A stretch of 64,000 nt of DNA from Corallococcus sp. AS-1-12 (GTDB taxonomy: Bacteria; Myxococcota; Myxococcia; Myxococcales; Myxococcaceae): contig NZ_JAIQDD010000010.1 in NCBI RefSeq assembly GCF_020036995.1, positions 161,433 to 225,432 of the forward strand, written 5' to 3'. Positions within the stretch are counted from its first letter, which is position 1. Every line of letters starts with the position of its first letter. A model generated the notes under the pieces. It searched no databases, was not told the DNA's origin, and worked only from the letters and a program-made list of their open reading frames with translations. The position numbers and the translations under genes are program-made. Positions 54,624-63,537 of the stretch are shown piece after piece.

Positions 54624-55706
54624 ATGGACGGTTCACGGCGCGTCACTGTTCTCTCCTTGCACCGGGGTTCCGCGAGCATCGTCCGCGCCCTGGTGCCCCA
54701 CTTCGATCTGCCGCCGGCGGAGCTCGCCGCGAGGCTGTTCCGCGCCCCCGCGGTGCTGGCGTCGGGCCTGCCGGAGGACCTCGCCCGGGGCCTGTCGGAG
54801 GTGCTGGGCAACGCGGGCCTGCGCGTGGTCGTGGAGCCGGATGACGCGCCCCTTCCTCCTCCCGCCGGGCAGACCTACGACGTGGCGCTGTACGTGCGTG
54901 ACGGCGGGCGCTTCCGCGAGGTCTGCGCGGAGCTGGCGGCCGTCCTGGGCTGTCCCCTGGCGGACGCCGCCTCGGCGCTCTGCGCCACGCCGCCCACGGT
55001 GGTCGGCTCCGTGTCCCAGGCCACGGTGGACGCGCTCCGGGAGCGCTTCGCCGCGCTGGGCGCGGAGGTGGACGCCAGCCATCCGCCCACCGCCCGCTAT
55101 GACGTCTTCGCCACGGAAACGGTCAGCCTCGCGACGGTCCGCTCGGTGCTGGAGGCGCAGGGCGTGACGCCGGGCGAGCCGCCGCTGGTGGCCCGGGACC
55201 TCTCGCACGAGCAGGCGGAGCGCGTGTGGCGGGAGCTGGGAGCGCGGGGTGGGGTGCGGTTGTTGGATCACGCCTTCCAGCGCTTCGACGTCAGCCTCCT
55301 GGAGGCCCCCGCCGACGCCGGCTTCCCGGAGCTGCTGGTGCGGGAGACGGGCATGCCCCCGGCGCTGGTGCCGAAGGTGCTCAAGCGGCTGCCGGTGGTG
55401 CTGCACACGGGGCTGTCGCGCGCGGACGTGGTGGCGCGCACCGCGCCCCTGGAGGCCGCGGGCGCGAAGCTGGCCGTGCAGCTCATCAACTTCCGCAGCT
55501 TCCGCCTGACGGTGGAGGACTCGAAGGACCCCGCCGTGGCCGCGGAGCTGCTGTCTTCGGGGCTGGGGCTGCAAGCCAACGAGGCGCGCACCGCGCTCTC
55601 CCGGCTGCCGCATACCTTCCAGGCCACGGTGGGGGACACGCGCGCGCGCTGGCTCGTCGCGGAGCTGCGCGCGCGGGGCACGCGGACGTCGCTGGTGTCC
55701 CAGTGA
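54624..55706 (+). CDS. Repeat protein made of ~5 modules resembling the ribosomal L7/L12 C-terminal domain; first gene of the long plus-strand operon
   Basis: Modules such as LADAASALCATPPTVVGSVSQATVDALRERFAALGAEVDAS and LHTGLSRADVVARTAPLEAAGAKLAVQLINF. These echo L7/L12-CTD (…[34 protein letters not shown]). 360 aa. Confidence 0.45.
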   Translation: MDGSRRVTVLSLHRGSASIVRALVPHFDLPPAELAARLFRAPAVLASGLPEDLARGLSEVLGNAGLRVVVEPDDAPLPPPAGQTYDVALYVRDGGRFREVCAELAAVLGCPLADAASALCATPPTVVGSVSQATVDALRERFAALGAEVDASHPPTARYDVFATETVSLATVRSVLEAQGVTPGEPPLVARDLSHEQAERVWRELGARGGVRLLDHAFQRFDVSLLEAPADAGFPELLVRETGMPPALVPKVLKRLPVVLHTGLSRADVVARTAPLEAAGAKLAVQLINFRSFRLTVEDSKDPAVAAELLSSGLGLQANEARTALSRLPHTFQATVGDTRARWLVAELRARGTRTSLVSQ

Positions 55707-56251
55707 GCTCGCTCGCGCTGCACTTCCGCGTGGCGGAGCAGGGCAAGGTGTTCGCGCTGGCTGGCCGGCATGACGAGGCGCTGCGCCACTACCGGGAGGC
55801 GCTGCGGCTGGCCGCGCTCCAGGGCGGCTCCGACGTCTGCCAGCGCCACTATGCGTGGTGCGTGCTCGAGTCGCTGGAGCGCTCGGGGGCCCACGAGGCC
55901 GTCATCTCCTTCTGCCTGCGCGTGGAGGCCCACTACCAGCAGCAGCCTCCCACGAGCGACCTGGCCCGTCAGGACCTGGCCGCGCACCACGAGCGGCACG
56001 GCCTGGCGCTGGCGAAGCTGGGGCGCCTGGCCGAGGCGCGCACGCGGCTGGAGTCCGCGGTGGCGCTGGCCGGGGCCGGGCGGCTCCCGCTGTCGGAGCG
56101 GGTGCTGGGCTGGGCGCGCACCGGACTGCACGTGGACGCGCGCCGCATCACGCTGGAGCAGGACCGTCACGCCTACTGGGTCGTCCGTCCCGACACCGTT
56201 CGTCCCGACATCGCCGTCGCACTTCCTCCCGTCGCCGCACCCTTGGGGTAG
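55703..56251 (+). CDS. Hypothetical TPR-like helical protein
   Basis: GTG start overlapping the upstream stop (GTGA). ALRHYREALRLAALQGG... 182 aa. Confidence 0.4.
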   Translation: MSSLALHFRVAEQGKVFALAGRHDEALRHYREALRLAALQGGSDVCQRHYAWCVLESLERSGAHEAVISFCLRVEAHYQQQPPTSDLARQDLAAHHERHGLALAKLGRLAEARTRLESAVALAGAGRLPLSERVLGWARTGLHVDARRITLEQDRHAYWVVRPDTVRPDIAVALPPVAAPLG

Positions 56252-56254
56252 ACC

Positions 56255-62414: not shown

Positions 62415-63083
62415 ATGGCGGATTCGAATGACGTCCCCCAGTTGGAGGCGCTGAGCGCGCCGCTGGGCGCGTTGATCTCCTCGGTGGGCCGCGGCGTGGC
62501 GGAGGCGCAGCGGGAGCTGGACGCGGCGACCATCGAGCGGATCCGCGAGCTCTACGCCTCGGACGAGGACCTGGCGGTGGAGCTGCAGCGCATCGGCTAC
62601 CGGCCGACCTGGTACCACATCCCCGAGGCCGAGGCGGAGATCGCCGTGGCGCTGTCCATCACCTCGGAGGAGCGGACGCAGGGGCGCACGCGCCTGAAGA
62701 TGTACGGCGCGCCCCTGGACGCCAGCTACACCAACCGTTTCGCCTACAGCCTGACGGCGCAGTCGCGGCTGAAGTTCCGGGTGGTGCCGGTGCCGCCCTC
62801 GCCCCAGGCGGAGGCGCTGGTGGTGGTGCCGGCGGTGGTGGGGAAGACGGTGGGGGACGCGCGGGCGCTGCTGTCCGCCATCGGCGTGCCCCACCGGTTC
62901 CCCAGCGGCGCGGCGGACGCCGCCCTGGTCCTCTCGGCCTCGGCCGAGCCGGGGACGCTGCTGCCGCGCGGCACCGAGCTGGTGCTCACCGTTCAGACGA
63001 CCGGCGGAGGGAAGCTCCCGCCCACCGGAGTCCTCACCCGCTCGCCCGTCCTGGAGACCGTGGCCGCCGAGCCCTTGAAGTGA
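62415..63083 (+). CDS. Family member 6 with C-terminal PASTA domain
   Basis: ISSVGRGVAEAQRELD...RPTWYHIPEAEAEIAVALSI...YTNRFAYSLTAQSRLKFRVVPVPPSP, then VVVPAVVGKTVGDARALLSAIGVPHRF...GTELVLTV (PASTA-like). Confidence 0.55.
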   Translation: MADSNDVPQLEALSAPLGALISSVGRGVAEAQRELDAATIERIRELYASDEDLAVELQRIGYRPTWYHIPEAEAEIAVALSITSEERTQGRTRLKMYGAPLDASYTNRFAYSLTAQSRLKFRVVPVPPSPQAEALVVVPAVVGKTVGDARALLSAIGVPHRFPSGAADAALVLSASAEPGTLLPRGTELVLTVQTTGGGKLPPTGVLTRSPVLETVAAEPLK

Positions 63084-63102
63084 ACGGACGGTCCGTGCCG
63101 CG

Positions 63103-63537
63103 ATGGAGGCCCCTGGCGCGATGAGTGACGCCATCGACCTGGAGGCCCTGCTGGTGGACCTGCGTGAGTCGCTCGCGCGGGTCCAGGCGCGGCTCGGCGC
63201 CGGCCCCATCGTGCTGGGGCCGGTGGAGCTGGAGCTGCACGGCGCGGTCACCGCGGACGGGACGGGGATGCACTTCACCCCTGGAGGCCCCGGCGAGGTG
63301 CGGGCCGTGTTCGTCCAGCAGGGCCCCGAGGCGGCACCGCCCCCCGCGCCGGAGCTGTTGGGCCTGACGCGGAGCGCCGCCGTGCGCAAGGCTCGCCTGG
63401 CTGGAGCCTCGCTGGAGGTGACGGACGTGCCCTGCCTGTCGCCGGAGCAGGCGGGGCGGGTGTGCTGGCAGCGCCCCGAGGCCGGAGCGCCCCTGACGGA
63501 GGGTCACATCGCGGTGGGACTGTACGTTACCGGCTGA
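63103..63537 (+). CDS. Short family-like protein with C-terminal PASTA domain
   Basis: LVDLRESLARVQARLG...VELELHGAV resembles the family N-terminal half. C-terminus PELLGLTRSAAVRKARLAGASLEVTDVP...GHIAVGLYV (PASTA-like). An alternative start is 63121. Confidence 0.45.
   Translation: MEAPGAMSDAIDLEALLVDLRESLARVQARLGAGPIVLGPVELELHGAVTADGTGMHFTPGGPGEVRAVFVQQGPEAAPPPAPELLGLTRSAAVRKARLAGASLEVTDVPCLSPEQAGRVCWQRPEAGAPLTEGHIAVGLYVTG

Follow-up and report, generated by a model that had tools for sequence, protein, structure and literature searches.

A fixed-order operon of helix-hairpin paralogues with peptidoglycan-binding modules in Corallococcus and at least eight bacterial phyla, and its possible assembly into a mixed-subunit beta-barrel

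What use can soluble proteins without an export signal make of modules that bind the bacterial cell wall? The question is raised by an operon of eleven plus-strand genes, designated g1 to g11 (Table 1), in a 64,000-nucleotide stretch of Corallococcus sp. AS-1-12 (contig NZ_JAIQDD010000010.1, positions 161,433 to 225,432; the whole stretch is referred to as the window, and coordinates in Corallococcus sp. AS-1-12 are window positions). A preliminary description of this DNA had reported tightly packed genes, a family of paralogues that it could not assign and wall-binding modules in proteins lacking a signal peptide. We found that the operon is real, that it encodes solely non-enzymatic, signal-less soluble proteins, and that the puzzle posed by the wall-binding modules is a genuine one. 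The reading that we prefer, with a probability of roughly 40%, is that its products form a mixed-subunit, protease-independent beta-barrel complex similar to Pepco, which carries peptidoglycan-binding and Ig-like modules, is handled by g2, a TPR protein, and by g1, and would serve in biological conflict or help the cell respond to envelope damage.

Six subunits with one architecture

Ortholog groups OG1 to OG11, numbered by operon position, were built from 79 related loci, the best of the 288 matching stretches obtained in a search of one genome per species. All-against-all BLASTP interlinked g4, g5, g6 and g10 at E-values of 1e-9 to 1e-42, with g10 matching g4, g5 and g6 at about 1e-10 and g5 matching g6 at 1.8e-42 (3.7e-73 for OG5 against OG6). 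The much longer g3 joined this set through its two ends only, residues 1-110 and 640-698, where the hidden Markov model (HMM) of OG4 also matched it, at residues 6-91 (E 2.6e-18) and 647-692 (E 1.5e-11). Profile-profile comparison related OG3, OG4, OG5, OG6 and OG10 to one another at 98-100% probability, and it was by this comparison only that g8 entered the family (hhalign of OG8 against OG10, 96.8%, E 2e-10). Across the HMM and HH-suite searches, the values for paralogy ranged from 1e-13 to 1e-73.

For g11, the only match was to the C-terminal half of g9 (OG9 HMM, g11 residues 10-135, E 4.8e-17), a region that consists of a mini-core of 70-80 residues, comprising a helix, two strands and a proline-rich end, followed by a PASTA domain. 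Profile-profile comparison of the mini-core with the full family gave probabilities of 63% with OG10 and 42% with OG6, and the kinship between the two is only suggestive; a protein from a Sphaerotilus plasmid bridges them, matching the OG9 core at 7e-8, OG4 at 4e-4 and OG10 at 1e-3. On these comparisons, the family comprises five clear members (g3, g4, g5, g6 and g10), one divergent member (g8) and one or two possible reduced relatives. The preliminary description had counted seven homologous proteins of about 140-220 amino acids (aa); against that count, five members are clear, one of them (g3) with 698 aa, g8 is divergent, and g11 is not demonstrably a member.

The plasmid in question, NZ_CP035710.1 of Sphaerotilus sulfidivorans, carries a reduced five-gene relative of the operon at 274064-276843 (8048-10827 of locus L082). 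Two of its genes encode full family members, of 172 and 178 aa, and one a mini-core protein of 165 aa; the other products are a protein of 114 aa and a coiled-coil protein of 278 aa that also ends in what looks like a mini-core. Genes for OmpA, PASTA, TPR or L12-repeat proteins are absent from this locus, the content of which suggests a minimal core of the system.

The three motifs by which the paralogues had originally been recognised proved to be invariant or near-invariant columns in a 41-sequence alignment: A27, A29, Q30 and D34 (IAEAQ..LD); L75, G76, F77, P79, F81, Y82, E90 and K92 (LGFTPTFYQF..E.K); and K140, Y141, Y143, S144, E146, G147, S149, L155, P159 and P161 (KY.YS.EGSS...L.P.P). 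In addition, g3, g4, g5, g6, g8 and g10 all carry a V-x-V-P-P-x motif, and the paralogy lies far beyond chance. The earlier failure to recognise the family was equally borne out, as the core family gave nothing above threshold in Pfam, NCBIfam, PADLOC or PHROGs, scans of all genes of the operon found accessory domains only, and no consistent family besides weak Trypco2 matches emerged when 73 and 42 family members were scanned singly. The annotation of all relatives is 'hypothetical', and that of g3 only 'OmpA family protein'. Further copies of the family were not found elsewhere in the window. One minus-strand open reading frame (ORF) at 35819-37573 matched the OG3 profile alone (E 7.9e-18), most likely owing to the OmpA part of the profile, and looks like an unrelated OmpA-family protein.

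AlphaFold2 monomer models were obtained for g6 (41-sequence alignment; predicted local distance difference test score, pLDDT, of 71) and for g4 (73 sequences; pLDDT 77.5). The two independent models agree on an amphipathic helix of about 30 residues, the conserved LGFTPTFYQF loop, a hairpin whose strands are 25-30 residues long, the PPP motif and a short C-terminal helix, which in g4 correspond to helix 21-52, strands 74-104 and 110-139, and helix 143-154. Along both strands, the ortholog profiles alternate between a hydrophobic/aromatic face and a Ser/Thr-rich face, and the hydrophobic moment of the N-helix is 0.44-0.60 in the six family members and 0.34 in g11. The six subunits g3, g4, g5, g6, g8 and g10 share one architecture, consisting of an amphipathic N-helix, an amphipathic beta-hairpin, V-x-[VIL]-P-[PA]-x and a Pro/charge-rich tail, and the mini-core subunits g9 and g11 have the same layout in reduced form. 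Searches of the PDB with five family profiles or consensus sequences returned no match; Foldseek gave weak matches to lower collar proteins of phi29-type podoviruses, in which helices are likewise paired with a long hairpin that forms a tube.

No two-stranded hairpin of 100 Å can exist in isolation, and for this reason a side-by-side association of the subunits is probable. They would then probably close into a mixed-subunit beta-barrel or ring, with 14-16 strands if seven or eight different hairpins each contribute once, the aromatic/hydrophobic face of the strands pointing outward or being covered by helices and the Ser/Thr/charged face lining the lumen. A barrel so built would have the architecture published for Pepco, the only family for which a remote signal recurred. 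That six to eight distinct paralogues, each forming its own group across phyla, are encoded together without enzymes agrees with the earlier proposal of a multi-subunit assembly.

Wall-binding modules and accessory proteins

Wall-binding and Ig-like modules are placed either at the hairpin tip (OmpA-like, g3) or at the C-termini of the subunits (PASTA in g9, g10 and, in a form discussed below, g11; Ig-like in g8). The OmpA-like domain of g3 scores 43.4 bits against PF00691 (cut-off 27.2), has the conserved Asp and Arg by which the stem peptide is contacted, and contains the motif GWAD...YNQRLSQRRADFV (also written GWAD...NQRLSQRRADFV). Among 60 g3 orthologs, 34 have the full motif G-x-[TASC]-D...N-x-x-L-[SGA]-x-x-R-[AG], and 15 more have its N..L..RA part alone; in Halomonas, the ortholog of g3 is an OmpA-containing protein of 579 aa. 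The preliminary description was right that the operon encodes such a domain, which turned out to lie within a family member, at the tip of its hairpin, and not in an accessory gene of its own. Past the OmpA-like domain, residues 400-645 of g3 (57452-58189) include two similar segments, 'F.VG.TA..TA.NLA.AI', and make up a repeat domain without a Pfam match; the counterpart in Halomonas reads 'AHNLTTAINA'.

PASTA is otherwise largely a domain of Gram-positive bacteria. Against the PF03793 cut-off of 23.2 bits, it was found in g9 (31.4 bits) and g10 (31.8 bits), in all 20 OG9 orthologs and, when 42 members of OG10 (29 of the 42) and OG8 were scanned as one set, in 28 of them. The third C-terminal PASTA domain that had been claimed, that of g11, reaches 19.7 bits, below the threshold, in a region homologous to the PASTA of g9. 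In g8, the match to Big_1 is likewise below threshold (E 2.6e-4). Some relatives of g6 end in a Big_2 or Laminin_G_3 domain, and across the family these domains either replace PASTA or add to it. The ortholog profile of g9, a protein with a coiled coil that is long in most taxa and shortened in the Corallococcus window, matches the beta-sandwich and coiled coil of the S-layer stalk protein SlaB (8qox_B) at E 1.4e-7, a match that is compositionally biased.

As the preliminary description had stated for the family, signal peptides were not found, nor were transmembrane segments, in any of the 11 proteins, and the highest 19-residue Kyte-Doolittle average stayed below 1.6. Taken together with the modules, this finding would also suit a cytoplasmic complex without a pore, which senses or sequesters peptidoglycan precursors or recycled wall fragments through its OmpA-like and PASTA domains, an option that the preliminary description had already raised: all operon proteins are predicted to be cytoplasmic, and two kinds of stem-peptide-binding module are conserved. 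Such a complex is improbable, as the operon offers no output domain, whether kinase, DNA-binding domain or enzyme, the Big_2 and Laminin_G_3 fusions in relatives do not fit it, and six paralogous hairpin subunits would be superfluous for sensing.

Three further proteins accompany the subunits. g1 scores 32.2 bits against Pfam Ribosomal_L12 (cut-off 25.9); its ortholog profile matches PDB chains of the L7/L12 C-terminal domain with two different repeats (E about 2e-6), and an HH-suite self-comparison detected repeats about 75 residues apart at 92-98% probability. A ribosomal bL12, of about 120 aa, would also have an N-terminal domain for dimerisation and L10 binding, and against TIGR00855 g1 scores 25.9 (cut-off 84.4). 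Because only the fold of the C-terminal domain was matched, and five times over, g1 is a repeat protein reusing the L7/L12 domain and not a ribosomal protein, presumably serving as an assembly, chaperone or regulatory subunit. Export of g1 by the twin-arginine translocation (Tat) route through its SRRVTVL stretch was considered and rejected, as the stretch is not conserved in orthologs. For g2, the TPR-like character proposed earlier was confirmed by Pfam TPR_12 (31.7 bits, cut-off 30.1) and by matches of its ortholog profile to TPR proteins in the PDB. g7 is conserved in position and poorly in sequence: every locus examined has a counterpart of 224-535 aa between the OG6 and OG8 genes, and these counterparts share only an N-terminal motif, SW..LL ... 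LL.ER..LE..M..L.G. The C-terminal 60 residues of g7 are rich in Met, Asp and Glu (MDMESMEQQMDMEMERAGMGMDDMD), a tail absent from the leading 200 residues of counterparts in other phyla, whose C-termini lay outside that comparison; those leading 200 residues are rich in Lys, Arg and Glu. The repeats of g1, the location of the OmpA-like domain inside a family member, and the likeness to Trypco2/Pepco had all been passed over in the preliminary description.

Distribution, operon layout and neighbourhood

Profiling of operon conservation, one of the checks proposed at the outset, showed the order g1-g2-g3-g4-g5-g6-g7-g8-(g9)-g10, with g1 always first, in every locus long enough to show it. This ten-gene order occurs in at least eight phyla: Myxococcota, Gamma- and Alphaproteobacteria, Bacteroidota, Gemmatimonadota, Verrucomicrobiota, Nitrospirota and Latescibacterota. 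The hosts include, besides the myxobacteria Corallococcus, Archangium and Myxococcus sp., the genera Halomonas, Marinobacter, Psychromonas, Saccharophagus and Pleionea, Sphingomonadales and Rhodospirillales, Fluviicola, Dokdonia, Flavobacterium and Chitinophagales, and members of the Gemmatimonadota, Opitutales, Nitrospirota and Latescibacterota. A homolog search with g6 gave 1726 matches, all unnamed and about 50% identical between phyla, and an HMMER scan of 1.84 billion representative proteins returned 1126 clusters at E <= 0.001, that is, a core family of at least 1,126 clusters at 50% identity. The Halomonas orthologs are 39% identical to g2 (at the same position), 55% to g4 and 31% to g8; orthologs of g5 in other taxa have an insertion after the N-terminal helix. 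Such a patchy occurrence across phyla, at an identity of about 50%, is in keeping with the horizontal spread of an accessory system. In the literature searched, no description, name or experimental data existed for any ortholog, and only papers on conflict systems were relevant. Conserved blocks of unknown function at such a scale are rare, and this one, ten genes in an order fixed across at least eight phyla, is unnamed, lacks a Pfam family for its core and is the subject of no publication that we found.

Since the same ten-gene order occurs across non-myxobacterial phyla, the operon is bound neither to myxobacteria nor to spores. The preliminary description had suggested a structure possibly related to spores or development in a myxobacterium, and had pointed to a Hanks-type Ser/Thr kinase immediately upstream; one explanation of the operon would accordingly be a structure of this kind that is specific to myxobacteria and possibly under the control of that kinase. 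The host is indeed a Corallococcus, and a Ser/Thr kinase gene does lie 1.1 kb upstream on the opposite strand. This explanation is nevertheless exceedingly improbable in view of the presence of the operon in many non-spore-forming bacteria of at least eight phyla; the ten-gene order is found, among others, in Halomonas, Marinobacter, Fluviicola, Dokdonia, Sphingomonadales, Gemmatimonadota, Opitutales and Nitrospirota. The kinase gene, moreover, is separated from the operon by a lipoprotein-like gene on the same minus strand, and this pair is conserved upstream within Corallococcus only, being absent upstream in Archangium and replaced in the Myxococcus sp. locus by a kinase-like ORF of only 28% identity. 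We therefore rejected the kinase as a component of the system.

The constancy of the operon lends more weight to the main alternative, a non-lytic envelope structure, namely a tube, fibre or lattice anchored on the peptidoglycan that would be built from polymerising hairpins and a g9 coiled-coil stalk and exported by a route independent of Sec and Tat. As with the components of the flagellar rod or the pseudopilins, each paralogue forms, from phylum to phylum, a distinct group with a fixed place in the operon, and g4 and g6 are very well conserved. Every accessory module (OmpA, PASTA, Big_1, Big_2 and Laminin_G_3) belongs to an extracytoplasmic type, most orthologs retain the residues with which the OmpA module contacts peptidoglycan, and g9 resembles an S-layer stalk in having a beta-sandwich followed by a coiled coil. 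Small TPR chaperones serve type III secretion subunits, and g2 could act likewise in such a structure. We nonetheless consider this unlikely, since none of the 10-11 proteins has a signal peptide, Tat motif or transmembrane segment, neither an ATPase nor a secretin, usher or membrane platform is encoded in the operon, the host phyla do not all have any one alternative secretion system in common, and no structure of this kind was reported in the literature searched.

Viral sequences contained no relatives of the family, neither among 2.9 million IMG/VR contigs nor among 50,697 GenBank phage records, and a phage origin was rejected on this ground. The same result bears on the idea of a particle released by lysis, virus-derived or bacteriocin-like, which would assemble in the cytoplasm and act on other cells: its modules would bind the wall of a target cell and the hairpin barrel would act as a lethal pore. 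Phage virions and tailocins typically contain signal-less proteins with modules of the Ig-like, lectin or wall-binding kind. The weak Foldseek matches to podovirus lower collar proteins point in the same direction, the charged coiled coil of g7 could serve as a ruler or scaffold, candidate chaperones are present, and Corallococcus is a predator. Besides the missing viral homologues, consistent PHROG matches were not obtained, and the operon contains no lysis, capsid, sheath, baseplate or immunity genes; its core is strongly conserved where receptor-binding weapons usually diversify, and most hosts are not predators. A particle of this kind is accordingly quite unlikely.

Table 1. Features of the operon in the Corallococcus sp. 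AS-1-12 window.
Feature	Position	Strand	Size or location	Description
TTGACA	54586-54591	+	33-38 nt 5' of g1 start codon	-35-like hexamer
g1	54624-55706	+	360 aa	Five tandem L7/L12 C-terminal-domain-like repeats
g2	55703-56251	+	182 aa	TPR protein; GTG start overlaps g1 stop codon
g3	56255-58351	+	698 aa	Family member split by an insertion of about 540 aa at the hairpin tip
OmpA-like peptidoglycan-binding domain	57194-57433	+	g3 residues 314-393	Pfam OmpA, E 4.6e-11
g4	58361-58864	+	167 aa	Minimal family member
g5	58887-59459	+	190 aa	Family member
g6	59478-60068	+	196 aa	Family member, best conserved
g7	60087-61025	+	312 aa	Highly charged coiled coil, Met/Asp-rich C-terminus
g8	61018-61683	+	221 aa	Divergent family member with C-terminal Ig-like (Big_1-like) domain
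g9	61680-62411	+	243 aa	Beta-sandwich, shortened coiled coil, helix-hairpin mini-core, PASTA
PASTA of g9	62211-62390	+	g9 residues 178-237	E 1.8e-7
g10	62415-63083	+	222 aa	Family member with C-terminal PASTA
PASTA of g10	62820-62996	+	g10 residues 136-194	E 1.4e-7
g11	63103-63537	+	144 aa	Mini-core and PASTA-like domain; extra copy of the C-terminal half of g9

Gene calls upheld the eleven tightly packed genes, with spacing between -8 and +22 nt: g1/g2 and g8/g9 overlap by 4 nt and g7/g8 by 8 nt, and the remaining gaps are 3-22 nt. The GC content across the operon region and its flanks is 0.67-0.76. Upstream of g1, the -35-like hexamer TTGACA is kept in Corallococcus (the window, L003 and L006), Archangium (L007) and Myxococcus sp. 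(L009), and we infer that it may be a promoter element of the operon itself. If it is, the transcript would have almost no leader. A consensus promoter scan upstream of g1 did not find a full sigma-70 site or a clear -10 box. A sigma-54-like GG-N10-GC at 54553-54568, spotted by eye, was dropped, as it is not conserved in Corallococcus interemptor. Further upstream, between the lipoprotein-like and kinase genes, there is a perfect 15-bp inverted repeat with 10 G-C pairs (53624-53656), which the terminator scan called on the plus strand, yet both flanking genes are on the minus strand.

At the other end, g11 follows g10 in five loci of the myxobacterial type (L003, L006, L007, L009, and L008, a metagenome-assembled genome (MAG) labelled Enterobacteriaceae), and in L013, L078 and L017 the operon is likewise followed by g9/g11-like genes, short or additional ones. 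The near-identical genome of Corallococcus coralloides has a helicase gene 3' of the operon, and g6 is 100% identical to its counterpart in C. coralloides KYC2213.

Flanking genes differ between genera. The sole recurring neighbour, in 12 loci, is a Reg_prop-type sensor, sometimes with a LytTR regulator. This Reg_prop/Y_Y_Y-like propeller sensor, whose repeats were judged by eye (about 1300 aa in L011), lies no more than about 6 kb from the operon, and mostly upstream of it, in Bacteroidota, Gammaproteobacteria and one Latescibacterota genome (L011, L015, L032, L053, L055, L058, L061, L067, L070, L072, L073 and L080); a LytTR-type response regulator stands beside it in Fluviicola and in one Flavobacteriales genome. 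In those lineages, the sensor may be a dedicated regulator of the operon. In one alphaproteobacterial MAG (L086), the operon lies between an AAA_15/AAA_21 ATPase gene (locus positions 1-2052) and an AAA_16/AAA_22 STAND-like ATPase gene (15755-17338), surroundings that look like a defence island, and in another locus (L087) a Tle1-like lipase gene and a PG_binding_1 gene are located upstream. Other loci are neighboured by housekeeping genes.

Likeness to Pepco and comparison with known systems

Trypco2 (PF19631) was the only non-accessory Pfam family that recurred, always below its gathering score of 24.2 bits. It matched g11 of the window (E 1.2e-3) and, including its orthologs in L006 and L007, gave E 4e-4 to 1.2e-3 and 19.5-21 bits; with consensus sequences, the values were 2e-3 (18.5 bits) for g11, 0.098 (13.4 bits) for OG10 and 0.26 (12 bits) for OG8, and 2 of 42 individual OG8 and OG10 members matched at E up to 0.023. 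The definition of Trypco1 and Trypco2 (PF19493 and PF19631) rests on their occurrence beside trypsin-like proteases in conflict systems (Kaur et al. 2020, PMC7159879), and both have since been renamed Pepco, for peptidase-co-occurring anti-phage effectors (Evans et al. 2025, bioRxiv 10.1101/2025.11.14.688446). The latter study describes Pepco, which has 117 aa and an amphipathic basal helix, as assembled in advance: 9-10 copies form a beta-barrel that resists sodium dodecyl sulfate and has a hydrophobic exterior and a charged lumen. Cleavage of the Pro/charge-rich tail behind a conserved Ile turns this barrel into a lethal pore. Pepco acts from within the cytoplasm and for this reason lacks a signal peptide, and in some cases peptidoglycan-binding sensor domains are fused to the proteases that partner it (10.1101/2025.11.14.688446). 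Judged against this published description, the layout of an amphipathic N-helix, a hairpin and a Pro/charge-rich tail after an aliphatic residue is present in the operon's subunits. A second remote match was that of the OG10 consensus to positions 81-144 of the 154-position DUF2589 model (PF11655; E 4.8e-4, 21 bits, cut-off 23), seen with the consensus sequence only; DUF2589 was not among the 25 most frequent Pfam families for the 29 OG10 and 13 OG8 members, besides which there were 4 further families. Nothing is known of the function of DUF2589 in the literature searched.

By analogy with Pepco, the barrel might be a pre-assembled, latent membrane-permeabilising device for biological conflict or for responding to a damaged envelope. 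As there is no partner protease, control could be exerted by g2 and g1 holding the Pro-rich tails or the helices, and the OmpA-like and PASTA modules could act as trigger or dock, recognising wall fragments or the wall itself, with g7 as a possible scaffold and g9 as a possible stalk.

Several observations weigh against this Pepco-like barrel. The gathering score of Trypco2 was reached by no family member, and g3 to g6, the four best-conserved groups, gave no PF19631 signal at all. In 79 loci, a scan for GDSG/HC-type serine protease motifs and Pfam scans found no protease in or beside the operon, the lone peptidase neighbour in the Pfam neighbour tables being an unrelated Peptidase_M61 in one locus. 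PADLOC-DB 2.0 does not list the system and gave no match besides a chance-level one for g9 (E 0.038). The insertion of about 540 aa at the hairpin tip of g3 is hard to square with entry of that end of the barrel into a membrane, and peptidoglycan-binding, Ig-like and lectin modules normally function outside the cytoplasm. Strict ten-gene synteny with about 50% identity across phyla is more typical of a structural machine than of fast-evolving defence, and the chromosomal context is stable in Corallococcus and Halomonas, with no obvious island. The AlphaFold2 models, finally, are of monomers, with the pLDDT values given above and low confidence at the hairpin tips.

It is possible, if doubtful, that the operon encodes a machine not described so far: a beta-barrel of fixed composition made from seven or eight helix-hairpin subunits, assembled in the cytoplasm without a dedicated ATPase or secretion component, in which recognition of peptidoglycan is coupled to opening or insertion of the barrel. 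It might act as a protease-independent suicide or defence pore or as a Sec-independent envelope conduit, in hosts ranging from Bacteroidota to Myxococcota. If the link to Pepco is true, the just-discovered class of pre-assembled beta-barrel immune effectors would be extended from the known two-gene, protease-gated homomer to a large heteromer with the sensor fused on and no protease, and DUF2589-like proteins would gain a first lead. If it is false, the operon still raises a sharp question, namely how OmpA-like, PASTA, Ig-like and lectin modules work without an export signal in Gram-negative bacteria. Either answer is within reach in culturable hosts, for example Halomonas, Corallococcus and Fluviicola.

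Among other known systems, phage tails, tailocins and contractile injection systems do not correspond to the operon, in which no tube, sheath, baseplate or tape-measure homologues were found and which did not turn up in the viral genomes searched. Gas vesicles (GvpA/J/M/S) and R-bodies (Reb) resemble it in having several small, signal-less paralogues per operon, with a helix-hairpin-helix in GvpA, whereas the operon's hairpins are much longer than those of GvpA and not uniformly hydrophobic; homology to gas vesicles was rejected, as hhalign of GvpA against every group stayed below 1% probability. The phi29-type lower collar (gp11), alpha-haemolysin and anthrax protective antigen share with the subunits a combination of helices and one very long hairpin per subunit; their hairpins join into a tube or barrel, as those of the operon, with alternating amphipathic faces along the strands, probably do. 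In common with OmpA, Pal and MotB domains and with the PASTA of PBP2x and PknB, the operon has genuine domain matches with the key residues present, but in proteins without an export signal and, for the OmpA module, embedded in a hairpin loop.

Pepco itself is encoded by a single gene beside a trypsin- or caspase-like protease, and its barrel is made of identical 117-aa subunits. In the operon, by contrast, the subunits are six to eight different paralogues, 140-700 aa in length, that possess LGFTPTFYQF as an additional conserved block; the binding modules are fused straight onto them, four further conserved genes are present, a protease is missing, and the Pfam threshold is not reached by any member. 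What the two have in common is the helix-hairpin-tail layout with hydrophobic and polar hairpin faces, a conserved aliphatic residue before the tail, the lack of a signal peptide, and the presence of peptidoglycan-binding domains in the same systems.

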